A stretch of 52,120 nt of DNA, the filler included, from Sphacelaria rigidula (Eukaryota): assembly GCA_964200075.2 (NCBI GenBank). It is 4 parts of 4 records of this genome, joined end to end, with 100 filler letters (N's around TTAATTAATTAA, not from the genome) between each part and the next. Parts side by side here need not be neighbours in the genome. Positions count along the whole stretch, not along the records: positions 1 to 12,958 come from CAXNAA020003268.1; 3 more parts are not named here. The stretch is one strand, 5' to 3'. The stretch's first letter is position 1, and each line of letters starts with the position of its first letter. Made by a program: the position numbers and the translations under genes. Shown piece after piece: positions 608-13,058 of this stretch. The notes under the pieces were generated by a model that searched no databases, was not told where the DNA came from, and was given only the letters and a program-made list of their open reading frames with translations.

Positions 608-840
608 GGGGGGGGGGGGGGTATTTTGGGCCGTTTTCCTCCCCGAGGTTTTGTTTGAAATGTTGGTTGAAAAATCCCCACAAAAATCCNNNNNNNNNNA
701 CCACTCGAGCCGTCTCATCGGCGCGGGCGTATGTGCGCCAACAATGCCGAACTGCGGGGGGGGGGGGGGGGGGTATTTTGGGCCGTTTTCCTCCACGAAG
801 TTCTACTTGAAATCGTCGTTGAAAAATACGCTACAAAATG
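607..840. repeat. Two direct copies of polyG-TATTTTGGGCCGTTTTCCTCC... flanking a 10-N gap (690-699)
   Basis: The copies at ~607-689 and ~756-840 share G(n)TATTTTGGGCCGTTTTCCTCC...TTGAAAAAT. Confidence 0.7.
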
Positions 841-1064
841 CTCTCATGCACTTCAATGACCGTTCAGGGAATCATGGATTCACATAGTACTGGAGTCGGT
901 TTTATTCAAGCGAATACCGTAGTGTGGATCGGTGGACACTTGTGGTGTATCCTGTAGGAACGATGGCCGAAAGTCAACTCACATTAACCCAGGAACCATT
1001 CCTTCACTGTTTCGCCTTGGACGTTTTCTAACGCTGGTGACCTGTGTGATTTGCTTGCAACCAG

Positions 1065-4000
1065 GCACGGCATGATTCTCTTCGGAGACCTGGACTTCTT
1101 CACGTCTGACTGTGTCCGAAACAAGTCCGGCCAGGGACTGTGGCTAGGGTTCAAGACACTCCTGGAGGAGGGTAGTCACGTCTACAGGTACCTATTATTC
1201 TTGATGTCGCTGTCGCTACCAAACACCAAGGTATTCATGGATGTCTGTGACCGTTTCGGCCCCATTTTCCCCACCAGATACTATGGAGTGTCTGATGTAA
1301 TCTGATTATCCACCCCACTTTTGAAGGTTTCTGTGTCCTGTGAATTGAGGAGATACCAACAGCCTGTGTTTTCAAAGGCCGTGCTCTGGCGTTTCCGCCC
1401 CGTAGCTCACCGTGGGTGGCTGTGTATCGTGTCGATAAAACGTATGGCCATACACAGTGTCATAGTCATTGGGGCGACAAGTGGCTGTTGCAGCTGGGTC
1501 CAGCATCAAACTCCCGATGACTCATGAATATCCCACTCATGAATATCCCACTCCGCCGCAACACGAGCTAACTCTGGTATCCTTAAAATCTATTTTTGCC
1601 CAAGGGATGGTCTACCGGTGATCTGTGAAAAACACAAGACTTGCGCCAACCTAGTCGATCCGCCGGCGTTCGACCAAATGGCCCCGGACGGTGGATGCCT
1701 TCTACCTTGTGGCCAGAAGCTAGGATGTGAGCATCTTTGCCGACGAAGGTGCGTACGTGTGCCAAACGTGTGCCAAACATGTGTCAAGAGAACAGTAGAT
1801 GGGTAAAGTGACACGCAGAATTTTGGCACGTAGGCGGGGAGAACTATTGTACGACATCCCGTTAATTAGCCTAACCTCTCGACCGAACAATCGACCTCAG
1901 GAGCACCGTCGACGGAAAAGCACACTGTTGCCTCAATTCTGTTGTAATCACCTGCCTACAATGTTTTGGTACGGGTTGAGGGTTCGTTCATGAAGAGAAT
2001 GATGTCGAGTCAGCAAGGGTGAGCAGCTCAACGGCCAAAGGTGAACGATCGGTGTTACAGCCTCCCAATAACCTCGCATTCCATCTCTATCCCTCACGCG
2101 TTGTTCCCCACAATCAGGTGCCACCCGGGGGATGATGAAGGTCACACACGCGGTTCCGAGACCTGCGGCGTTGTCATCAACGAAATGTGTGCCAAAGGAC
2201 ACACCTCGAAGCGGAGGTGCCGAGACCCCGCGGGACTGCCTTGCCAGCCATGCGAGCGGGAGCGCCTGGCCGCGGAACGTGAGGCTGAGGAACAGGAAAA
2301 TACCAGGCGCCGCCGCGAGGAAGACCGTGAAAAGGCCGCCGCCAGGCTTGCCGCGGCAAGAAGGGCGGCCGCCAACGAACGCGAAAAGCTATCTCACGGA
2401 CTTGAGCTACTGCGACTTGAGCGGGAGACGCAGCGAGCGGAGGTGGACGCGGAGGAGGCGCGCGCCTCGGCCGGCGCGGCGCAAGCAAGGCTGACGGGGA
2501 TTCGCACGCGCGGAGACGAACAAGTCGACCCTGCCGCCGACAGAAATGTCGGCGGTCAGGCTACGAGCGGAGTTCGCGAGGATATTGAGCGTAACGCTAA
2601 AAGGAGGGAAGATGAGCTTAACGCGCGGTTTGTCGAGACAGGGAAAGCTGGAGCGGAAAACCTTACGTCCACTCGTAAGGCCGGCGTAGAAGCGCGTGTT
2701 GGCAACGACAACAACATAAGCAAAAAGCGCAAGGGTAGAAACGATGCAAGGACACGCAGAAAGCCTGCAGAAGTTGAGAACCAGGCGAACTCCTGCTCAG
2801 CCGCTGATGGCCTACCGGCATCCACTCTTCGTCTCGTGGCGCAGGCGGCCGAAAATGGCGATGCCGATGGCATCCTCAAGGCCCTTGAGGCCGTGCCGAA
2901 GGCCGAGTGGGAGCGCGCATCGCACGAACTCGCACTCGCCGTTGGCGACACGGCACTAGCATGGTTCCCCCTGTCTTATGGAGGCGGAAGGGAGCCACAG
3001 CTCGTTTCAGCCCCCACCGGCAGAACTGCTCAGGCCATAAAGATGATGTCCCAGGGACAGTGGGTAGGTGCTCGCCGTGTCCTCGCCGCCGCGTTGAAGG
3101 AAGATGAAGGCAACACTCAACCTCCAGCGGGATCGGTCAACCCACATATCATATTCGCGCTGGCCCTTTGTGATTTCAACCTAGGAGGCGCCGCCACAGC
3201 ACCTCAACTACTGAGAAAGCTTCAGGCTGCCGAGCTTGAGATATGGCCCGGGTCCACGGAAGGTGCCGCGTGCCCGGGGGCACGTGCTTTCCCACTAGCA
3301 GCGCTTGTTCGCGCCACGCTCGTAACCGCCGTGTTCGAGGACACTAACGTCCCAAATGGCAGCCCGGGCACCTTCAGCGACGCCCCTGCCGATGAAAACG
3401 GCGAGCTAGACCCGAGAGTACAAGCCTGTTCGTCGGCGATAGCGTTCATGCGGGCATCCGCACACGCTCGTCAATCCGGGGGGATAGACGGGAGAATATG
3501 GGAACAGGCTGCAGAGATGGTGGTGCGGAAGACGGGTGGGGCTCTTGCGGTTGCATTGTGGGGACCAGAAGGAGGTGGCGGAACCGGCACTGTCGACGGT
3601 GATGACAGGAAAGAGGCACTTGGGGAAAGGGTTGTGACCGAGTGGAAGAAGCTGAAGGCGCAGTGGGGTGTTACGAGTTCGGCGATGGAAGAGTTGTTGG
3701 ATATGTCCGGCCTGGACACGATTAAGCTTCGTTTTCTGAACATTGCTCAGTCCGCTGCACTTGACAAGGAGCGTGGGTACGATCTCGCGGAACGGTCGTA
3801 CAATATACGCTTGGAGGGTAACCCGGGAACAGGTGCGTTTTCGGTAGCACGAAGCATAGAAAGCATTTGCCACCAAGGGGGTGATGGAGGCGGTTTAAAA
3901 AATGAAATAGGCGAGCGTCACCCATGCCAGTGCTGCCGAGGTAGTTGGTATCAAGCATGACCATCGTCCTTGAGGACTGATTTGTGAACAAAAACAATTG

Positions 4001-7000
4001 CTGTGTAGGGAAAGAGTTCACAACAGTCGTGTTATCGAGAGATTGCGGCAGCCTTTTGAGATGAGAGGGGCAAAACCAAAACTGCACCTTGGCAAAGTTG
4101 ACTTGAGCTCGCGCCGCCCCACGTATTTTTCCTTACGGCATCGCCACTAAATCTGCCCCCTTCACCCAGGGAAAACAACTGTAGCACGACTGTACTACCT
4201 TCTCCTTAAGGAAGTCGGTGTTTTCGACCAAGCTGAGCAAAAAGCGCGGCGGGCACAGGAAGAAGCCCAAATTCGAGCTAAAAAGAAGGCTGCTGCCGCA
4301 GAGAAGGCCCGCCAAGAGGCTGAGCGGCAGGCCTACCGAAGCGCTGGCGTCCCGTACAATCCTCCACCCGCCTCCTCGTCCAATGTCGCCGCCTCCCCGG
4401 CGCCAGCGCCCGCACCCACACCAGGATCAGCGGAGGAGAAGGCCAAGAGATTTGAGGGCTTTGTAGAGACTACGGGAGCGGATCTTGCCGACAATGGGGT
4501 TGGGGGCGCAAAGAAGATGCTGGAAAAAATCAGGACTGCCGGCGGGGGGGTGTTGTTCGTGGACGAGGTGGGGACTTGTGTGAATGCTTGCGGGGGTTTT
4601 TCGTCCGCTCGACTTGATACACGTGCTTATTGTTTTGTTTTGCCGCACGGAATGTAAGTGTTAGACTGTTCAGAATACACTGTGTTTTGAACAAATGGGG
4701 GTTCCCATTTGCATATTTCTGCGTCGTCCACGGGCAATCTTGAAGAACACTAATTGGTTTTCGGATGAAGAACGAGAAGGGAGGGGGCAAGGGTGTGAGG
4801 AGTGCTGATTGGTTCACAGAACGTCATGTAGCGGCCAAAAGCAGGTCGTGCTGCACCCCAAGACACCTTAGCTTGTATAAACTACGACTATGAAGATAAC
4901 CGAGACAGCAGAACAGCGCGTCTTACGCGAGCATAATGGCAGACCTTCGTCGGCAGTCATCTTGTCAGGATACTCATGCCATTGTGATCTGTAGCCTTGA
5001 TACGTCCTTGCCACGTACCCGCCTGTCTACCAGGCATACACCCTAGAGCCCAAGGGTGGAGGTGGAGGCAAGCAGGTACTCAACTATCTCCTGGCTGAGA
5101 TTGAGAACCGAAGGGGAGAGCTGGTGGTAGCTTTTGCCGGCTACGCCAAAGACATGGAGTCACTGTTCGAGTACAACGAGGGGCTCCCTAGCAGGTTTCC
5201 AGAGACCCTGCGGTTTGCAGACTACAGTGACGCCTTGCTCCTCCATATCTTCAAGGGGCTCATGAAGAAGAAGAAGGGGCGGAGTCAGCTGAGGTTGGCG
5301 CCAGGGACCGGGGAAGGGGAGCGGTGGGCCAAGGTGGCGATCGTGCGGCTCGGCCGTCGGCGGGGTACCAGGGGATTCGGCAATGCGCGTGCGGTTCGAG
5401 TTCTGTTTGATCGAGTGCTCCAGCGGCAGACGGACCGACTCAGCAGCATCGATGGCGGCAGCAGCGCCGACGACAGCGTCAATGGAGCGAGCGCCGATGA
5501 TCGTGATCCGTTTGTTTTGACCAAGCCAGATTTGCTCGGGGTGACGGTCGCCGAGCTTGCTGACTCCGCTAGTTGGAATGAGCTGGAGAGCATGGTTGGG
5601 CTGGGACGCGTTAAGGATGCGGTGAAAGCGCTAGCCGAAGTGGTGAAGACCAATGTCATGCTTGAGGAAGAGGGAAAACTCCCCAGGGCGATCGCTCTTA
5701 ACAGATGCATGCTCGGAAATCCTGGCACCGGTGAGAATCACACACAAGGATATGTTGGCGCGGCTGCATGCGTGAATGCTTTTAGCGTACAAAATAGTGT
5801 TGTAGTACGAAGTATTAACTTTAGCTGTTTGTGAATTCAAGCGAGAACTTCTGGCCGACATTTTGCACAACGGATTAGATTCCAGCGCACGCAGCGGTTG
5901 TCGCGCAGCAATCCGAGGCACGCCGTTTAAGGTTGTTGCGCTAGATATACCACATCTCGGTCGTATTTGTCGAACGTGTTGTATCCGGAACATCCCCAGT
6001 GGAGTTGTGGACGGCATAAACAGTGGAATCACTGAAACAGCTTCTACGCACACAACGTGAACTCTTGTGTACAGTGACCTCTGGCATCGCTCTGCTTTCT
6101 GTGCTACTACCTAGGCAAAACGACCGTGGCCAAGTTGTTCGCTGGTATCCTCGCCGACCTGGGACTCCTCTCCAAGGGCGAGGTGGTGCTTAAGACCGCC
6201 TCTGACTTCGTCGGCTCAGTATTGGGCGAGAGTGAGAGCAAAACACGTAGTATTCTCAAAGCCTCTGAAGGGTGCGTCCTCGTTATCGACGAGGCGTACT
6301 CTCTCGGCGGAGGGGGATTCGGCGCGCCGGGAGGGGGAAGGGGTGGCGGCAGCGGCGGCGACCCGTACCGTGTGGCAGTGGTGGACACTTTGGTCGAGCA
6401 GGTACGTAGCACATGGATATACATCGATGGTATATGTCGCGCGCGCGTTTGTGTGTGTGGTGATCGTGCTTGGTACGAAGGGAGGCCATGAACTTCCGGC
6501 GCATATCATTTCAAAATCTACGAAGGTGAAGCTGTGATTTTCTCGAAGGTGTCCAGGTCGCGAAGCGGCGCCTTTCCACAGTGGTGGCGGATAGTCCTCT
6601 CCAGAATAGTGGAGTAATGACACTGGCATCGCCTTTTGCTAGAGTATTTCCACCCGTGACCCCGCGTATATTATTGGACGGCGGCAACAACCAGGTGCAA
6701 AACGTTCCGGGTGAGGATAGATGCGTGTTGCTGCTGGGCTACAGTGCAGAGATGGAGGACTTCATGAGGAACACCAACCCCGGCCTTGCTCGTCGCTTCG
6801 CCCTGGATAATGCCTTCGTCTTCGACGACTACACAGGTTTGTTGTGTCACCTATGAATGTGATGATGTCGCATGACAAGTCCTGAAGCGTGTGTCAGAGA
6901 GGGTGGCTTCATATTGGGAGCAGACGAGCCTATACCACGCACGTTTATGAGGTGTTGACTTGAGAATAATTCCGTTGACGCCTGTATCACATATGTTCCC

Positions 7001-10000
7001 TTCATGTTCGCGTTCCGCCGCTGTAATGCCACCTTCACCATGCGCAGGTGAGATTATATTCCTCAAAATCCGCTTTAAATCGACAACATGACGGCCTATT
7101 TCACCTGCGCCGCCCGCGCATTCATGAAACGCCGGACAAGATGCAACCATGTGTCTGAAACTAGCCCACTCAAACCACCTCCCCCCGCCTCCCTACCGTC
7201 CATCTTCTCCTGCACCCCTTCCGCCCCTCCTGACTTCATCTGTACTCCCGTTCAGACGAAGAGCTCCTGCATATATTACGTGGAAAAATTGCGCGTGAAC
7301 AGCTGACGGCGGGATTAGACGCTCTAATGACCGCCTCGGATATGCTCGCCAAGAAACGGGCGACGGCCTCGCACTTCGGCAACGGAGGGGACGTAGCCAA
7401 CTTGCTTAGCGAAGCCAAGCTTCGCAAGGAGCGTCGTCGGGGTAGTGATGGCTCCATGGCCTCGAGGCGAGTGTATGGACGTGTTGTGGAGGAGGCACAC
7501 TCCGCCCATTCCGCCATTTTGTTGGGCGATCTCTCGCCCCAACCCAACCCGTTGCTAGGATATACCAGTATAGCACTATGCATTACATTTTGTCTCCGCC
7601 CGCACAGCTGTTCAGGATGCACTTCTGGTAAGAAGAGCAGAGCAGGACGCTTTGCAGCGAAATTTGGTGTAGGGAAATTGGGCTTGAAACCAATCGAGGC
7701 TAATCTAGAACGCGGAAACTCGTGTCGAGTACTGGGTTTTTACTGTTTTTTTCTGTTGTCGATTAGATACATGACCATATTTCAAGTCTCAGATGTCAAA
7801 CTCTTCGACCCTTGGGTATATGTGTGGCCACCGACAAAATTCATCGTTTCTTTCGGTTGATGTGCGTTTCTTCAGGTTGGACCCGGAGCTCCTCCCTCAA
7901 GACTTCGACCCAGAGTATGGACAAGGCTTGCCCGACGGATCGACGCTCGCAGAAGAACTCTTCGGAGACCTCATCGGCTGCAGGGACATAAAGGCACAGC
8001 TCAGTAGAATCCGTTCCACTTTCCTCCTCGCAGAGAAGATTGGTCGGGACCCCCGTGAGGTGCGTTTTGTCGGAACAAGTACAAAGAGTGCTCACAATAC
8101 GAATGCGGATTGTACACCCGTGAACACCAGTCTCGAGCCGCTGCGTCTGCATAAGATAAGCCTCGTGGCAGTCGGTTGTCAGACGACACCTCGACCGACT
8201 CCTCACTTGCCTTCCCTCGCTTATGCCACCCACGTTACCCCACACCATTCATGATTATCGTTGCTCGCACCGGTCGGAAAGACAATAAATCTCAACTTCA
8301 GGTTCACGGGGGCCCCTGGGACAGGGAAAACGACGGTTGCCCAAAGGGTTGGTCGCATGTTCAAGAAGCTGGGAGTAATCCACTCAGACGAGGTGGTGAC
8401 ATGCTCACCCTCCGACTTTCAGACCGGGTAAGGTATTTCTTCGAGGCATATGCCCTCAGTTTTATTTTTTATTCTATATAATGCTTGTTTCTGGTAGCAC
8501 TCTTGGCAGAGTGTATGCTGGTATGTTATTTGGATAACGTTTTGTGCTCCGCCTCGGCACTTGATGAGCTATATCGCCCGTATCCCAACACCATACAATA
8601 TCCTGTTCGGCATGTTGTTCATGTCTACCCGAGAGCACACCCACCGGTGTATGAACAGCGTAACTTGAGGAGTCGAGCCTTTAAGAGTTAGCATTTTCAT
8701 TTGCTCAGCGGGGTCATATGTCGCATTTTATCCCGCTGAAACGCGTCACTTGCTCTTCCAGAACCGACCTCGTATGCATTGTGCAGTAGACACATACATG
8801 CATTTCTCATGAATTGAATATCTTGTGCGCTATGGTGAAGAACGTACGTCAGCGTATGGGAGGGGGGGCGAGGTTCGTCATGCGTTCGTCGGGTGTCGTA
8901 AGTACGAATTCACACTTCAGCAGACACCGAAACTTGTCGGCCACGCACAATAGAAACGACGCTTTAGGCTACCCTCGCCGTCTTTCGCGTTTGTTGTTAC
9001 CAATGTAGGTACGTCGGCCAGGCCGGTCTTAAGACCAAGGAAGTGATGGACAAAGCGATCGGGAAAGTGTTGTTCGTGGACGAAGCTTACGGTCTCAATC
9101 CCGGCCACGGTGGCGGCGTAGCCTCTTTTATGCACGAGGCGAGTGTCGCGATGTGTGCGCCCTGTGTTTTGCTTCTACAAGATGCCGGCCTGACGTTTTT
9201 CTTCTTTGCCCCCCTTTTCCAATGTTCATTTATCTCCTCCTCCTTTCCTTTCCTTCTTCCCATTTCTTGTACCGTCGTTTTCTCTTCTTCGTCTTCTTCC
9301 TCATGTTTTCTTCCCAATTTCAGTTTACTCTCCCCTTGTTCATGCTGTCATGTCTCGAGTTTCCTTTGGCGAGTGTTGCTATCTACCTCCCTGGGGTACG
9401 TCTATCTTGTGACCATGGCTACTTTTCCAGTGGGATAGCTTCATGTGCGACAGTGGATAAATAAGCCAACGAATTAACCTATCAGCCGTTTTTACAATAG
9501 CCACCTACTACCACGAACAGGCAGAGACAAATCACGGAAGCAGGCGACCGCTACCGGGTTACTCTCAGCACAGAAGGCATCCCAATACTATCCGCTATTT
9601 GGTTTCCTCTCAAAAGGAAAGATACACATCGCCAAAATTGTACGGCCTTCCGAATACCGTGGCGTTGTCTCGAAACGGCACGGCAACGAAGAAATGTAAC
9701 GGATGAGATGCTGACTTGCCACTTGATCCCACCCACCCCTCACGCGTCCCGGCTATGCAAAATAACACGATTTAAATCTTCGAACTCTCTAGGTTGTCGA
9801 CCAACTAGTTCAGTGCCTTACTGACGACAAATACAAGGGAAACATGGTTTGCGTCGTAGCTGGGTATGCCGCTGAAATCGACGACCTCATGGACGCAAAC
9901 CCTGGCCTGGCTAGTCGCTTCCCCGAAACCCTCCACTTCCCGAACTTCGGGGTGGAGGACTGCTGTCGGCTTCTGGAGGGTAAGCTCAAGAAGGACTTCA

Positions 10001-11536
10001 GCACAGAGCTAGCACCGAACGTGATGGCCGCGGGACCGGCAGGGGAAGGGCACGTAGCGCTAGGGGACATTCTGTTACCGCTAGTTCAGGTTCGTCCGTG
10101 AATGACTGTGATATTGCCGAAGTGAGCATGTTACCTGATAGCGGGGTATTTGCTTCGAAGTGTCCCCGATTGCTGCGCTGAGCGACGAGCCAGACACCGA
10201 TAGATGAATCGATTACAGGATGCAAGTGATAATTGCGCACAGGGATCATGAATTGTCCTTCAAACTCGACTAGTCCCTGCACGACTTTGTTACGGTACTC
10301 ACGGCGACACATCAACTCAACCATCCGGCGATGTGCGGTAATCCCCATAATGTCGAGGTTTTGTTCCGGATTTCCAACAGACTAGGCACGGAGTTCGTCG
10401 CTCTTCGCCTCTTGTGGACGAGCAACTAATGAGTAAGGTAAAAATTATGTGCGACAAACGCTACTCATTCTCCTCTGATTCAGCGAGGGTCTGACACTAT
10501 AATACTATATCAGATGTTTACTTGTTGTGCATTTCTCTGCGTTTTTCAAACGATACCCGTGGGTCTGCAGGCTCCTCGCTTCGGTAACGGGCGGACAATC
10601 ACCGATCTAGCAAAACGTGTTTTTACCGAGATCGGCGTCCGTGTCGAAAGCGGCGGAGCGGCGCAGGCGGACCCTAGGGCCTCAGCTGCCGATGTCCGGC
10701 GCTCAACCGCTGCAGTTCTCCAGCAAATGAGCCGCGTGGCGCGCGTCTCAAGCGCTTCAGCCAGCGTCAGTCGCGCGAGAGAGCCTCCTATAGCGGTCAG
10801 CAGCAACAACCAGTCGGCTCGTCCGCCTCCTGAGACAACGTCAGTGGTAACCGTCAAGACCGAAGAAAAGCAAGACGGCCATTGGCAGGACGTCAACGAT
10901 ATAGTTCAAATGGAAACCAAGGAAATCCTAGATACACCGAGCTTCGACGCCGACGACGGCTTTTTCTCGGCAGCCGACCGGCAGACGTTGAGGGCAGCAT
11001 TGTCGATCGCTGACATCGCTGAGGACAGCCCTGACATCAACGGTGGCAACTCGGATCTCCGCCGCGTACTGCTGCTACCCCAGGAGGCCGGAGGGATTGG
11101 CCTTTCCAAAGAGGAGGCGGATACTTTTATGCGAGGCGTAGACGCCGATCGCGAGGCCCTGAAGCGGGCGCTTGTGGAGGCCACAGAGGTCGAGAAAGAG
11201 GAAGAGGCCCGGATGGACGCCATGAAAAATGAGACTTCAGATGCAGCCGAAGCGATCACGACAGCGGTGGAGAGTGGCGTCGATCAAGAGACGTTGAAGT
11301 TACTTGAGGCGTTACAGAGAGCCAAAGAGGAGGCGCTCAAGAAGGCAAGGGAGGAGATGGAGCGCCAGCAAGCACTCGAGCGAGCAGCGCAAGCGGCGCT
11401 CAAGCGCATGGGTAAGTGCGTCGCCGGGTTTAGGTGGATTCGGCAGTCTGGCGGTGGGTGGAGATGCGCCGGAGGCACACACCATGTTTCCAGTGGCGAG
11501 GTGGCCGCCGAGATGGCTCGCGAGCCATCGCGTTGA
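1065..11536 (+). CDS. 5'-partial multi-exon gene: ZNFX1/UPF1-like SF1 helicase C-terminal end + NFX1-like Cys/His zinc fingers + coiled coil/helical region + three tandem CbbX/SpoVK-type AAA+ ATPase domains + C-terminal Cys/His motif
   Basis: Exons inferred from splice sites, all phase-compatible: 1065-1187, 1605-1748, 2118-3832, 4170-4567, 5034-5730, 6115-6401, 6695-6836, 7256-7466, 7876-8059, 8282-8427, 9009-9138, 9793-10089, 10571-11536 (5440 nt, ~1812 aa, stop TGA). Motifs: RHGMILFGD (end of helicase motif VI region); PDGGCLLPCGQKLGCEHLCRRRCH (NFX1-like); Walker A GNPGTGKT, GNPGTGKT, GAPGTGKT; Walker B VLFVDE, VLVIDE, VLFVDE; GLPSRF, GLARRF, GLASRF; FGNAR, FGNGG, FGNGR; C-terminal MGKCVAGFRW...WRCAGGTH. 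Confidence 0.9.
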
Positions 11537-11761
11537 GATAAGGCGGTCGGTATCATGCTTGCTGGTCATCTCGTGGATACATGGAAAACGATGGTCGCGA
11601 GCAGCTGCGAGAAAATCACCGCTAGACGCGCGATTGGTTAGATGGAAGTGTCGACTTTCACGTAGTACCAACAAGCAATGTATCATATGCAGAGATGAGT
11701 TAATTTTCAAGTTGCGGCTTGCCATAGCGTCAGTTTGCGTGATAGCATTTGGGCATGGCAG

Positions 11762-11788
11762 TATATATATATATATATATATATATAT
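11762..11788. repeat. (TA)n microsatellite
   Basis: Directly visible. Confidence 0.9.
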
Positions 11789-12958
11789 GGCGATGACGTG
11801 GGGTTTGCAAGGGCGAACCTGCATCCAAAAAAGGGGGGGGGGATGAGCAAGGGCGGGAGAGGCGGGGAAACAACTCTTCAGCAAGTAAGGAAGACAGGAA
11901 GACGAAGAAAAACGAGTCAGGGTACAAACCCAGAAATACAAAGGGACGCGAAATATGGTGTCGATCAGATGAAAGGCACCGAGACCGGTTGGAAATTCCA
12001 AGGACAAAGTGGAGGCGAGGCATTCAAGTACCGTGGCTTTGTGTTTATTGAAAGGGTGGTGGGCTCTGGGAAAGACAACAACACTTGACTTGTGGGTAAA
12101 TATGGCATTATTCATCGCTTCCATGATTTTGACATACAGTGGTTGAATGTCATACCGGCTGGTCGGATCCCCGTGCGTCGCTCTGGTAGCATGGCGAAGG
12201 AGGGCTCACAGCTACAGAAAAGGATCCATATCACACGCGTTGTCGTTGATTTAGGATGGTATGTCGCACCCGGTGCTTTTCGGGGTACATCTCCGGTACA
12301 CAACCACGACTTCGCTGGAGCCTACCCTCCGGGTAGATATGATTGAATTTATGTGGTACGTGAACGCTGGATATCGTTACTGGGATTGCGATACGGAGAT
12401 CGTAGTGCCTGCAGGTCACCTGGGCTTGATATTACGTACAAATGATTATATAATATTCGTCCGCGAGGCAGAAAAACTCTTTTGGGCCCGGACTCGAAAC
12501 TTCCTTCGAAGAGAGAGATTGAGCTGGAGACGTCGTTTCTCAGCTGAGTGCAAGCCAGCCCATACAGCGATATCCTGCTGTCGTGTAGTCAGCGCGATAT
12601 ACTTTGATGCCCACTGCAAAACCCATGGGAGGGTGTTTCGAAGGCATCCCCCTAGAACGTATGCACTCATTCGCATTTGTATACAACTTTTCTATCAGCA
12701 ACCAATAAAAATGCAACCAAAGCCATATCACTGTACCACGCATATTGTAAACGTCTGATGGCCGCCGTGCGGACCTTTAGCAACCACCGTTGGCATCTAC
12801 TCCCGTACTACGGTAGTTTGCAGCTGAAGATACTTTCTACGATAGCCCCCCCCCCCCCTTCTGGTCCGGCGAGAACCCAGCGTGCTCCGTCCCGGCTTTG
12901 TAGGGGCGGATCCCCGATGGGGTTGGCGTTGGTTGGCGATGACGCTGTAAAACACGCC

Positions 12959-13058
12959 NNNNNNNNNNNNNNNNNNNNNNNNNNNNNNNNNNNNNNNNNN
13001 NNTTAATTAATTAANNNNNNNNNNNNNNNNNNNNNNNNNNNNNNNNNNNNNNNNNNNN
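12959..13058. other. Artificial contig linker N44-TTAATTAATTAA-N44
   Basis: Identical 100-nt spacer occurs three times, with stops in all six frames. Confidence 0.97.

Follow-up and report, generated by a model that had tools for sequence, protein, structure and literature searches.

What kind of protein is encoded by a long spliced frame of the alga Sphacelaria rigidula (assembly GCA_964200075.2), in which the end of a helicase, a set of Cys/His fingers and three AAA+ modules appear to be joined in one chain, and what might such a chain do? The frame lies at positions 1065-11536 of the window, the term used here for the whole analysed stretch of 52,120 nucleotides, in which parts of four records are joined by filler. 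A first-pass annotation had described a single spliced frame of at least 1812 amino acids running from a helicase tail to a terminal Cys/His motif, and had suggested a role in innate immunity or RNA surveillance. The best overall explanation, to which we lean slightly, is an RNA helicase of the ZNFX1 family whose ubiquitin-ligase output has been replaced by an AAA+ remodeller.

Gene model and transcripts

The coding frame on the plus strand comprises 13 exons, giving 1812 codons and a stop codon, with no internal stop and an open 5' end, in agreement with the length first proposed:
1065-1187, plus strand: exon 1, 5' open, phase 1, covering the end of SF1 helicase motif VI (RHGMILFGD), then a post-helicase linker
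1605-1748, plus strand: exon 2
2118-3832, plus strand: exon 3
4170-4567, plus strand: exon 4
5034-5730, plus strand: exon 5
6115-6401, plus strand: exon 6
6695-6836, plus strand: exon 7
7256-7466, plus strand: exon 8
7876-8059, plus strand: exon 9
8282-8427, plus strand: exon 10
9009-9138, plus strand: exon 11
9793-10089, plus strand: exon 12
10571-11536, plus strand: exon 13, stop codon at 11534-11536
11537-11754, plus strand: minimum extent of the 3' UTR, from X2 and X8 contigs unbroken across 10568-11754

All 12 junctions are bridged by spliced contigs from runs X1, X2 and X8, which are three of the four public runs and represent two studies, and the joint of 1187 to 1605 is found in contigs of each of these runs. 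In the DNA run X5, none of the 12 splice joints occurs, and the locus forms an unspliced contig of 9880 bases at even depth. Read depth in introns is far below that in exons, for example 4.3 versus 417 in X1 bins. Two introns, 7467-7875 and 9139-9792, are of the GC-AG type, with the donor GAG/GCGAGT in both according to the contigs, relative to which a splice model from homology alone has 2 of the 12 donors wrong. Upstream, spliced contigs reach 123-339 nt beyond exon 1; a 10-N assembly gap is located at 690-699, and at the other end a repeat at 11755-11799, beyond the mapped 3' UTR, was skipped by the read layer.

Two outcomes that the first-pass annotation had named as fatal to its reading, separate transcripts and no upstream helicase, did not materialize: no break into separate genes is seen in the transcript-like contigs, whose upstream ends reach helicase motif VI. 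It is close to certain that these 13 exons and 1812 codons make up the 3' portion of an expressed gene, whose giant product has the ZNFX1-family architecture. Provided that the head resembles that of Ectocarpus, the full-length protein would measure about 3000 amino acids, with the window portion as its rear two-thirds.

Helicase end, fingers, helices and tail

Of the AAA_12 domain, the window contains no more than about 10 residues (RHGMILFGD); the helicase core, known only through orthologues and 30 nt of the upstream exon, is absent from it. The loose end of a contig before 1063 provides these 30 nt, translated manually as NRLNVAISRA of motif VI, which followed by exon 1 corresponds to NRLNVAISRARHGMIMFGD of the Ectocarpus orthologue P0001 with one residue different. 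The upstream-exon 30-mer has no match within the window, and P0001 residues below 1195 gave no tblastn match to the window better than E=11. Exon 1 is 65% identical to P0001 residues 1193-1241 (tblastn), and across exons 1-2 the identity with the ZNFX1-aligned stretch of P0001 is 64-65%. In Pfam searches, AAA_11 and AAA_12 are both present in the orthologues P0001 (625-960 and 975-1202, respectively), P0002 and P0225. Among solved structures, P0001 and P0002 match ZNFX1 best (9q9z_A, E 1.6e-78 and 3.9e-79), UPF1 being far weaker (E 3.3e-32 and 1.5e-24) and DNA2, SEN1 and IGHMBP2 also among the weaker PDB matches; judged by these searches, the orthologues stand nearer to ZNFX1 than to the other SF1 helicases. 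ZNFX1 is described as a helicase-E3 activated by single-stranded RNA, which binds RNA via its helicase core and polymerises, and RNAi roles are assigned to S. pombe Hrr1 and to ZNFX-1 of C. elegans (PMC9276528).

The elements of the frame on either side of the AAA+ modules are as follows:
1621-2253, plus strand: Cys/His finger region, model residues 47-134, about 16 Cys/His, split by intron 2 (1749-2117)
2245-2511, plus strand: long single helix of about 89 residues, candidate coiled coil 1 (AF2, exon-3 residues 43-131, pLDDT >90)
2569-2634, plus strand: second helix (AF2, exon-3 residues 151-172)
2635-2817, plus strand: low-confidence linker, probably disordered (AF2, exon-3 residues 173-233, pLDDT <50)
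2824-3576, plus strand: all-alpha domain, possibly TPR-like (AF2 helices, exon-3 residues 236-486, pLDDT 85-95)
10681-11101, plus strand: Ser/Ala/Pro-rich stretch, probably disordered from composition alone
11102-11413, plus strand: charged helical region by composition, candidate coiled coil 2, leading into the tail
11417-11482, plus strand: Cys-Cys-His knuckle CVAGFRWIRQSGGGWRCAGGTH, the terminal motif

P0001 1146-1328 aligns to ZNFX1 9q9z_A 1264-1432, fingers included and with Cys/His columns matched, and the window fingers have the same Cys/His pattern as P0001, so that by alignment NFX1-type fingers stand directly behind the helicase. The Pfam families proposed for checking in the first-pass annotation were recovered in part: AAA and AAA_lid_6 were detected in the window and AAA_11/AAA_12 in the orthologues, and zf-NF-X1 gave no score on the separate exons of the window, where intron 2 interrupts one of the fingers.

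Helix 1 resembles coiled coils such as Beclin-1 (3q8t_A; VIA Z 7.5, rmsd 2.7, 94 residues), and in the second candidate the last 20 residues are modelled as a helix at 2-21 with pLDDT of about 90 (AF2 model md0fbb5d892aa); both are predicted as single helices, and their pairing is putative. The all-alpha, Ala/Leu-rich domain (A 18%, G 12%, L 9%) may be TPR-like, which is weakly supported by its best Foldseek match, the TPR protein 2pl2_A (E 0.036, under the confidence line), and by top VIA rows that are TPR domains (Z 7.4-8.9, about 130 residues, below the caution line for helical repeats); Pfam TPR had no match in the window. This domain is conserved in algal relatives and in the Mesostigma protein P0017 (P0017 745-1087 versus query 259-571). 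The Ser/Ala/Pro-rich stretch has no homologue alignment in blastp.

The knuckle and the Fibroporia tail share 58% identity in tblastn and 67.5% in blastp. C24, G27, W30, G37, C40, G43 and H45 are invariant in a 21-row alignment of the knuckle, and among 125 homologues exceeding 1500 aa, 106 match its strict pattern. Its AF2 model contains small strands at 30-32, 38-40 and 46-47. The invariant Cys and His of the tail are 20-22 residues apart, compared with 21 for the catalytic Cys1860 and His1881 of ZNFX1, whose RZ finger is a beta-sandwich domain. RING, Miz and RZ families had no Pfam match in the window tail at E<=10, nor in P0001, P0002 and P0225 at E<=1e-3 or 1e-4; the tail profile retrieved no RNF213 or ZNFX1 chain from PDB at E<=10, and no RZ-containing chain is among the structure-search matches listed for the tail, an absence that by the tool's own guidance is not evidence against one. 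On these searches, the protein does not appear to possess a C-terminal E3 module composed of a Miz-like/Z-RING domain and an RZ finger.

The AAA+ triplet and its distribution

The domain order first described, from helicase tail to terminal Cys/His motif, is confirmed, and its three complete AAA+ modules are located as follows:
3619-5470, plus strand: AAA+ module 1, end of exon 3, exon 4 and first half of exon 5
3817-4177, plus strand: module 1 Walker A GNPGTGKT, split by intron 3
about 4223-4459, plus strand: module 1 insertion of about 70 residues, charged/Pro-Ala
4550-5039, plus strand: module 1 Walker B VLFVDE, split by intron 4
5175-5198, plus strand: module 1 NEGLPSRF
5376-5390, plus strand: module 1 lid FGNAR
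5580-7466, plus strand: AAA+ module 2, end of exon 5 and exons 6-8
5715-6122, plus strand: module 2 Walker A GNPGTGKT, split by intron 5
6204-6245, plus strand: module 2 pore loop, non-aromatic
6276-6299, plus strand: module 2 Walker B VLVIDE
6776-6799, plus strand: module 2 NPGLARRF
7375-7389, plus strand: module 2 lid FGNGG
7876-10680, plus strand: AAA+ module 3, exons 9-12 and start of exon 13
8309-8332, plus strand: module 3 Walker A GAPGTGKT
8414-9036, plus strand: module 3 pore loop DFQTGYVGQAGLKT, containing Tyr (GYVG)
9067-9090, plus strand: module 3 Walker B VLFVDE
9898-9921, plus strand: module 3 NPGLASRF
10580-10594, plus strand: module 3 lid FGNGR

All three modules possess Walker A (GxxGxGKT) and Walker B (hhhhDE). 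Pfam AAA_lid_6 matches module 1 (E 4.7e-8, window 5001-5834), and module 2 is matched by AAA (E 1.7e-7, 6078-6491) and, below the cut-off, by AAA_lid_6 (E 1.7e-4, 7234-7860), which had no match on the exon piece of module 3. In PDB searches, 5034-5729 of module 1 matched CbbX (3zuh_A, E 6.5e-15) and EccA1 (9lur_A, E 6.4e-11), 9793-10089 of module 3 matched EccA1 (E 1.5e-5) and CbbX (E 1.1e-4), and no other chain passed 1e-3 for either piece. By these matches, the modules are of the CbbX/EccA/SpoVK type. CbbX is the Rubisco activase (PDB 3syk/3syl/3zuh) and EccA1 belongs to ESX-1 (PDB 9lur); both are remodellers, with the CbbX pore loop threading the substrate. CbbX and EccA are single-module proteins that form homohexamers, and EccA carries a TPR domain ahead of AAA+.

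A motif census covered 190 long homologues, of which the 175 with exactly three recognised modules form the base. Counted for modules 1, 2 and 3 in turn, 170, 169 and 174 homologues keep the Walker B DE, while 174, 174 and 175 keep the Arg-finger motif, a near-universal retention that speaks for hydrolysis by each of the three. The lid of module 2 reads FGNGG, so the sensor-2 Arg is replaced there; Gly occupies this position in 160/175 homologues, and the Arg is retained in module 1 in 156/175. An aromatic pore residue (Y, F or W) occurs in module 3 of 120/175, the module 2 loop has Tyr in one of the 25 homologues recognised by pattern and is non-aromatic in the others, and the module 1 pore-loop pattern had no match in the 175-homologue census. 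Most family members share these module-specific pore-loop and sensor-2 states.

The end-to-end architecture is common to Ectocarpus and hundreds of fungal proteins of about 2300 aa, annotated generically as P-loop NTPases; the fungal helicase-triple-AAA fusions mentioned in the first-pass annotation do exist, in large numbers. AAA_11, AAA_12, AAA and AAA_lid_6 are all present in 120/120 best matches listed. No paper on the helicase-triple-AAA+ architecture was found in the literature; the protein represents an uncharacterised variant of the well-studied ZNFX1 family, of which such examples are already in databases. In the tree, support is 100 both for joining the window to Ectocarpus and for placing it outside the Dikarya clade; a Mesostigma protein and one further protein fall in with these two, apart from Dikarya. 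The distribution is patchy, including brown algae, one green alga, Dikarya and further lineages. In fungi the gene is not strictly single-copy and has undergone repeated lineage-specific duplications, adjacent copies included, a pattern that fits a conflict role and does not show one.

Candidate function and comparison with known systems

In the favoured explanation, a coiled coil, a TPR-like domain, the triple CbbX/EccA AAA+ part, a second helix and the Cys-Cys-His knuckle would take the place of the E3. Single-stranded RNA would be bound and tracked by the helicase, as expected from the family, and the AAA+ part would respond to this RNA event by using ATP to remodel or extract RNA-bound proteins, a step suggested by CbbX/EccA-type chemistry and the intact Walker A/B in three modules; we consider such RNA-coupled remodelling an even prospect. 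Two chains might then pair via the long helices, with three plus three modules closing a six-module ring, as the CbbX hexamers and bacterial chains with five or six modules would suggest, and this dimeric ring is proposed tentatively. Labour would be divided within the triplet, an aromatic pore loop occurring only in module 3 and the sensor-2 Arg being lost in module 2. The setting could, with about equal chances for and against, be one in which foreign or aberrant RNA is kept under surveillance or silenced, which holds for all ZNFX1-family members that have been studied, and an antiviral or innate-immunity role is plausible by family membership. The anatomy given by the first-pass annotation was right; its immune interpretation draws solely on other members of the family.

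Remodelling is not the sole possible reading, since the AAA core of RNF213 is reported to act as a switch in which ATP binding activates the output without motor work. The triplet could likewise be a nucleotide-sensing switch or oligomerisation scaffold, RNF213- or STAND-like, that gates or polymerises the helicase; the polymerisation of ZNFX1, the missing module 2 sensor-2 Arg, the lack of an aromatic pore loop in modules 1 and 2, and the resulting count of only two canonical loops among six in a putative dimer are in its favour. We consider it unlikely, however, given the hydrolysis indicated by the Walker B and Arg-finger counts above and the remodelling function of CbbX and EccA1, its nearest relatives of solved structure. 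A housekeeping factor in RNP or mRNA decay (UPF1- or Aquarius-like), with no defence or silencing role, is the least improbable of the rivals, though still improbable: the helicase is a UPF1-like SF1 enzyme, architecture and module-specific motifs are conserved from algae to fungi, and transcripts of the gene occur in runs from two studies without known infection, but the distribution is patchy rather than universal, fungal copies have been duplicated repeatedly, and ZNFX1 is nearer than UPF1 by a wide margin.

A role on DNA or chromatin, combining an SF1B DNA helicase with a remodeller of chromatin proteins, is evoked by fungal homologues named 'related to ECM32 - DNA dependent ATPase/DNA helicase B' or 'helicase required for RNAi-mediated heterochromatin assembly 1', and by the weaker matches to DNA2, SEN1 and IGHMBP2. 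Those names are automatic, however, and ZNFX1 binds RNA through the same helicase core; this role is thus given little weight. That the long frame is an artefact of several genes, misassembly or fungal contamination might be suspected from the gap at 690-699 and from the helicase exons being absent from the window, but this is largely refuted and deserves almost no credence: spliced contigs chain each exon to the next and continue into motif VI, the DNA run yields one even-depth contig, the Ectocarpus orthologue unites helicase and AAA+ in one protein, and the tree places the window with Ectocarpus and outside Dikarya.

The alga protein resembles ZNFX1 in its probable SF1 helicase core, judged from the orthologues, in the Cys/His fingers that follow motif VI directly and align residue by residue, and in a long C-terminal extension with a small Cys/His element at its end. 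Animal ZNFX1 differs in its two-part ubiquitin-ligase output behind a zinc-finger stalk, which combines a Miz-like/Z-RING domain and an RZ finger and uses Cys1860 and His1881 for catalysis, and it is without the TPR-like domain and triple AAA+ of the alga protein, whose fingers span only about 90 residues. Hrr1 and ZNFX-1 belong to the same helicase family, and one fungal fusion protein is automatically named after Hrr1. The fungal proteins, such as FIBRA_08761 of Fibroporia radiculosa and NEUTE1DRAFT_146869 of Neurospora tetrasperma, are colinear from helicase to terminal knuckle, with Fibroporia P0002 1376-2103 being 44.6% identical over the AAA+ part, module 3 included (blastp); they form a separate clade, have a shorter finger-to-AAA+ linker and lack the module 1 insertion, with a Walker A-B spacing of 56-61 versus 131-136 in the algal group. 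Hrr1 of S. pombe and ZNFX-1 of C. elegans are not known to contain AAA+ modules.

The nearest non-stramenopile relative of the TPR-like and triple-AAA+ part is P0017 of Mesostigma viride (eukprot Mesvir1), which is 52% identical over model residues 597-1544 and shares the module 1 insertion, whereas its head is an MSP (Motile_Sperm) domain without helicase and its C-terminus is different; as its AAA+ part occurs without a helicase, AAA+ activity need not depend on RNA. Bacterial tandem SpoVK/CbbX-type proteins possess the same module type, with 28-34% identity over two to three modules, but are without helicase, fingers and knuckle and have five or six modules rather than three: six Walker A motifs per chain are present in P0226-P0228 and five in P0237, P0247 and P0301, and Pfam finds five AAA and four AAA_lid_6 stretches in P0247. 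CbbX and EccA1 share with the alga protein the AAA_lid_6 subtype, the GY strand, NxGLxSRF and the FGN[AG]R lid motif, whereas the alga protein carries three differentiated modules in one chain behind a helicase.

Gene model and upstream continuation

A single transcript-supported frame joins the tail of a ZNFX1-type helicase, fingers, helices, three AAA+ modules that retain the motifs for nucleotide binding and hydrolysis, and a conserved terminal Cys-Cys-His motif, hereafter the knuckle. The window DNA is eukaryotic in type, with short exons, and recognisable pieces of one protein lie in stop-to-stop frames on the + strand between 1065 and 11536. Twelve introns were placed by homology to two guide proteins, both found via the largest exon, namely the Ectocarpus orthologue P0001 (2306 aa) and the Fibroporia homologue P0002 (2342 aa), and were then checked against public reads by comparing four runs containing the stretch with window positions 700-12900. 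None of these runs is recorded as RNA and the type of X1-X4 is guessed, so reliance was placed on spliced joints instead. Contigs skipping all 12 predicted introns were found in three of the four runs (X1 and X2 from the same study, X8 from another), whereas the DNA run X5 gave no spliced joint and presented the locus as one unspliced contig of 9880 bases.

Ten of the introns are GT-AG, as predicted from homology, while those at 7467-7875 and 9139-9792 are GC-AG with an identical donor (GAG/GCGAGT), confirmed by spliced contigs; the GT donors of the homology-only model, at 7472 and 9144, were ruled out by the contigs, being off by six bases each. In the corrected model, 13 exons hold 1812 codons followed by a stop codon, free of internal stops, in agreement with the frame length of at least 1812 aa proposed in the first-pass annotation, and a transcript-supported model with two GC-AG introns is of value for annotation. 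The 3' UTR measures at least 218 nt, with contigs reaching at least 11754, and a TA-rich simple repeat at 11755-11799 breaks contigs downstream of the gene. Further contigs cover 11909-12491 in the spliced-type runs at a depth of 310-362 and belong either to an extended 3' UTR or to the transcript of a neighbour. The adjoining 12503-12900 segment is a high-copy repeat next to the N run that starts near 12,960; its depth is very high in every run compared (for example, 159,386 in X5 versus about 64 over the gene), and many loose ends fall at 12861.

The frame starts open, position 1065 directly following an acceptor AG, and spliced contigs extend 123 to 339 letters further upstream (339 in a contig of X8) into text that matches nothing in 700-12900. 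The last 30 letters of this extension, in frame with exon 1, translate by eye to NRLNVAISRA, giving together with exon 1 the sequence NRLNVAISRARHGMILFGD, whose Ectocarpus counterpart, at the end of the AAA_12 helicase domain of P0001, is NRLNVAISRARHGMIMFGD. Because the contig extension and exon 1 match that domain end, the transcript continues upstream into SF1 helicase motif VI, which upholds the earlier proposal of a helicase upstream, with the motif VI exon itself lying outside the window. The upstream 30-mer has no match in the window with up to three mismatches allowed, and tblastn of P0001 residues 1-1194 against the window returned nothing better than E = 11. The helicase half is located either beyond the 5' end of the window or in an assembly gap of 10 N at 690-699, both flanks of which carry poly-G runs followed by near-identical text (GGG...GTATTTTGGGCCGTTTTCCTCC..., within 601-830). 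These surroundings look like a repeat at a scaffold join, and 700-785 was masked as a repeat in the read comparison. If the head is Ectocarpus-like, the model lacks about 1190 codons, and the complete protein would be near 3000 aa.

Domain content and module-specific motifs

Features of the encoded protein flanking the helical region and the AAA+ modules (gene at 1065-11536, + strand)
Model residues 1-41, + strand: helicase tail and linker, 65% identical to P0001
Model residues 47-134, + strand: fingers, about 16 Cys/His
After module 3, + strand: Ser/Ala/Pro-rich stretch of about 140 residues
After the Ser/Ala/Pro-rich stretch, + strand: charged helical region
About 20 residues before the C-terminal end, + strand: knuckle motif CVAGFRWIRQSGGGWRCAGGTH

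The identity of the fingers is indicated by the orthologue, as P0001 residues 1146-1328 align to residues 1264-1432 of the human ZNFX1 chain 9q9z_A, from motif VI through the first fingers, with matching Cys/His columns. The short Pfam model zf-NF-X1 did not score on the exon pieces, intron 2 splitting one finger; Pfam at E<=10 found no zinc-finger family in the finger pieces or the tail, and on single exons it detected AAA and AAA_lid_6 only. For exon 3, an AlphaFold2 model built from 13 sequences (mean pLDDT 70) predicts an 89-residue helix with pLDDT >90 and, after it, a further helix; some 60 residues with pLDDT <50 then lead into an all-alpha domain that spans roughly 250 residues at pLDDT 85-95. 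The best Foldseek match of this domain is the TPR protein 2pl2_A (E 0.036), and the top VIA matches are PlcR, AIPL1, APC and Sgt1 (Z 7.4-8.9 over about 130 residues). Since both tools apply a caution line to helical repeats and these values do not reach it, the modelled domain is termed TPR-like rather than TPR. The 89-residue helix matches solved coiled coils in VIA with Z values similar to those of the TPR matches.

CbbX and EccA1 are the only solved structures matched by the window's own exons (6.5e-15 and 6.4e-11, respectively, for 5034-5729; 1.1e-4 and 1.5e-5 for 9793-10089). CbbX works as a hexamer and remodels its substrate by threading the substrate's tail past the pore loop. Modules 1, 2 and 3 contain Walker A motifs GNPGTGKT, GNPGTGKT and GAPGTGKT and Walker B motifs VLFVDE, VLVIDE and VLFVDE, and each possesses the GY strand and the NxGLx[SR]RF motif. 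The lid motif reads FGNAR in module 1, FGNGG in module 2 and FGNGR in module 3, and a CbbX-like pore loop with Tyr occurs in module 3 only. In a motif census of 190 homologues of 2000-2700 aa, counts were based on the 175 with exactly three recognised modules. Of these, 170 have the Walker B DE in module 1, 169 in module 2 and 174 in module 3; the lid Arg is retained in module 1 in 156 and replaced by Gly in module 2 in 160, and the pore position of module 3 is occupied by Tyr, Phe or Trp in 120, the loop being unrecognised by the pattern in the other 55. Judged from these motif states, the non-equivalence of the modules is a family trait, and the predicted architecture and its module-specific states are conserved between algae and fungi.

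Module 1 additionally carries a charged, Pro/Ala-rich insertion of about 70 residues between Walker A and B (window about 4223-4459). Walker A-B spacing is 131-136 in the algal group, where the insertion is aligned in Ectocarpus and also seen in P0017 of Mesostigma viride and the full-architecture homologue P0225, versus 56-61 in fungal and other relatives, so that the insertion is common to exactly the algal group formed by these three and the window gene. In modules 1 and 2, Walker A is interrupted by introns 3 (3832/4170) and 5 (5730/6115), respectively, at an identical codon position (GNPGT^GKT), and module 3 has no intron at that position; the shared position could predate module duplication or reflect parallel insertion at a proto-splice site.

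At the C-terminus, the strict knuckle pattern was found in 106 of 125 homologues longer than 1500 aa. By our own reading, the 19 misses comprise nine one-residue variants (C-x-AGGH), three degenerate motifs, four truncated models and three other C-termini. A Cys, Gly, Trp, Gly, second Cys, Gly and His are invariant, in that order, in a 21-row alignment, and the AlphaFold2 fold consists of a helix, three short strands and a helix (pLDDT 89.6). The knuckle matched no Pfam family at E<=10 and had no usable match in the ESM Atlas, its PDB profile search gave a single chance-level match to threonine aldolase (E 0.22), Foldseek returned none at E<=1, and the best Z in a wide VIA search was 5.1. Its Cys-to-His spacing of 20-22 bears a purely numerical likeness to the 21 separating Cys1860 and His1881 of the ZNFX1 RZ finger, which are described as its catalytic residues (bioRxiv 10.1101/2025.09.05.674436). 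With no RZ or RNF213 match in Pfam, PDB profile, Foldseek or VIA searches, an RZ finger was dropped as the identity of the knuckle and kept as a possibility.

Relatives, distribution and descent

The best solved relative of the P0001 and P0002 helicases is ZNFX1 (E 1.6e-78 and 3.9e-79, respectively), well ahead of UPF1, Aquarius, SEN1 and DNA2. A whole-length search with P0002 gave 1245 matches at E<=1e-3 among 7999 scored candidates, the best 120 of which are all fungal, 2242-2676 aa long, with AAA_11, AAA_12, AAA and AAA_lid_6, under names such as 'P-loop containing nucleoside triphosphate hydrolase protein', 'NFX1-type zinc finger-containing protein 1' and 'CbxX/CfxQ family protein'. A search with the P0001 segment that follows the helicase gave 785 matches among 7999 candidates, including a second Ectocarpus protein, P0225 (2664 aa), many Ascomycota (Neurospora, Sordaria, Fusarium, Aspergillus), the Mesostigma protein P0017 and bacterial multi-module proteins. 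Exon 3 alone, searched against 1.84 billion representatives, gave 102 matches at E<=1e-3 and 10 at E<=1e-30, mostly exon-sized fragments. In the Mesostigma protein P0017, the helicase is absent and an N-terminal MSP (Motile_Sperm) domain precedes the TPR-like and triple-AAA+ cassette. Bacterial relatives carry five or six CbbX/SpoVK-type modules per chain of 1391-1677 aa (P0226-P0228, P0237, P0247, P0301) and may be single-chain rings; the name of one such multi-module protein assigns it to a Melioribacteraceae bacterium.

In a quick maximum-likelihood tree, built from 808 columns of the AAA+ region in 45 rows with two bacterial rows as the root, the window gene pairs with Ectocarpus (support 100); Mesostigma joins this pair next (99), followed by P0225 (95). 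A Dikarya clade of 31 rows (support 100) stands apart, with other lineages between. Because the algal group is separate from the Dikarya clade rather than nested within it, and because the module-1 insertion is confined to the algal group, a recent transfer from a fungus to a brown alga was rejected.

Fungal duplicates were compared as two copies from each of 20 species, chosen by species name from the search tables. Mycenaceae hold two old lineages, with 53-58% identity within a genome versus 72-86% to the counterpart in another species; Armillaria has a genus-level pair (80-84%), and several species have recent duplicates (78-92%), one recent pair bearing the adjacent locus tags V5O48_011177 and V5O48_011178. 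One of the 20 pairs did not align at the threshold used. The family is often duplicated in fungi. Many Agaricomycetes show two gene copies, often on contigs of equal length (e.g. P0196/P0253, P0113/P0122). No second copy was found in the window by tblastn, and no relative was found in viral contigs in two scans, one with a protein query and one with an alignment query. Elsewhere in the window, 29 stop-to-stop ORFs of at least 130 aa (11312-52120) gave no Pfam family at E<=1e-3, and GC climbs to 0.60 in the last 4 kb.

Proposed mechanism and comparison with known systems

Engagement of RNA by the helicase would be linked to an ATP-powered remodelling of the proteins that this RNA carries, with the AAA+ triplet serving as output in place of the absent ligase module, module 3 as the substrate-engaging module, and module 2 as a partly regulatory one. 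As three modules would be insufficient for a ring, bacterial relatives have five or six per chain, and two long helices flank the triplet, we tentatively regard a dimer with a 3+3 ring as the likeliest assembly. The most likely setting, at roughly even chances, would be the surveillance or silencing of foreign or aberrant RNA, since this is where all members of the helicase family studied so far act; the antiviral role suggested in the first-pass annotation would be one candidate version of it.

Several other explanations deserve consideration. Instead of a motor, the AAA+ part may be a switch or scaffold gated by nucleotide, in the manner of RNF213; the protein may have a housekeeping role as an RNP factor; or it may act on DNA or chromatin. 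In view of the contig evidence, an artefactual long frame is very unlikely. In a more speculative picture, improbable as a whole, an old eukaryotic RNA-guarding machine distinct from animal ZNFX1 would sense foreign or aberrant RNA through its helicase and, rather than attaching a ubiquitin tag, close a 3+3 ring across two chains that the coiled coils and the knuckle hold in place, stripping or unfolding RNA-bound proteins (such as viral replicase, capsid or RNP); the TPR-like and triple-AAA+ cassette would be a portable effector whose sensor head varies with the lineage, algae and fungi using a helicase and Mesostigma an MSP domain.

Hundreds of database entries with generic names already show this architecture, and a literature search, covering the papers themselves, found none describing or testing the helicase-AAA+ fusion. 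The window gene is a new, transcript-supported member in a brown-alga-type genome, and the whole family represents an unstudied variation on a well-studied type.

Innate-immunity research has lately turned its attention to ZNFX1 as an RNA-activated helicase with an unusual ubiquitin-ligase output: its helicase binds single-stranded RNA, which switches on a C-terminal ubiquitin-ligase module (bioRxiv 10.1101/2025.09.05.674436, 10.1101/2025.10.14.682297), and roles in RNAi are described for Hrr1 and worm ZNFX-1 (bioRxiv 10.1101/2025.10.14.682297; PMC9276528). The gene is part of a large sister architecture in which the helicase and first fingers are retained and three AAA+ motors stand in for the ligase. 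This architecture occurs in brown algae, at least one further lineage and hundreds of fungi, among them Neurospora, a model genus for genetics. If the coupling is true, it would constitute a second, mechanistically different eukaryotic route from RNA recognition to action. On the helicase side, the orthologues and the window's own fingers agree with the ZNFX1 family, whereas its C-terminal E3 has no counterpart detected by sequence and profile searches of the orthologues and the tail, and the AAA+ modules agree with CbbX/EccA; the best description of the protein is therefore that of a variant within the ZNFX1 family whose output module differs.
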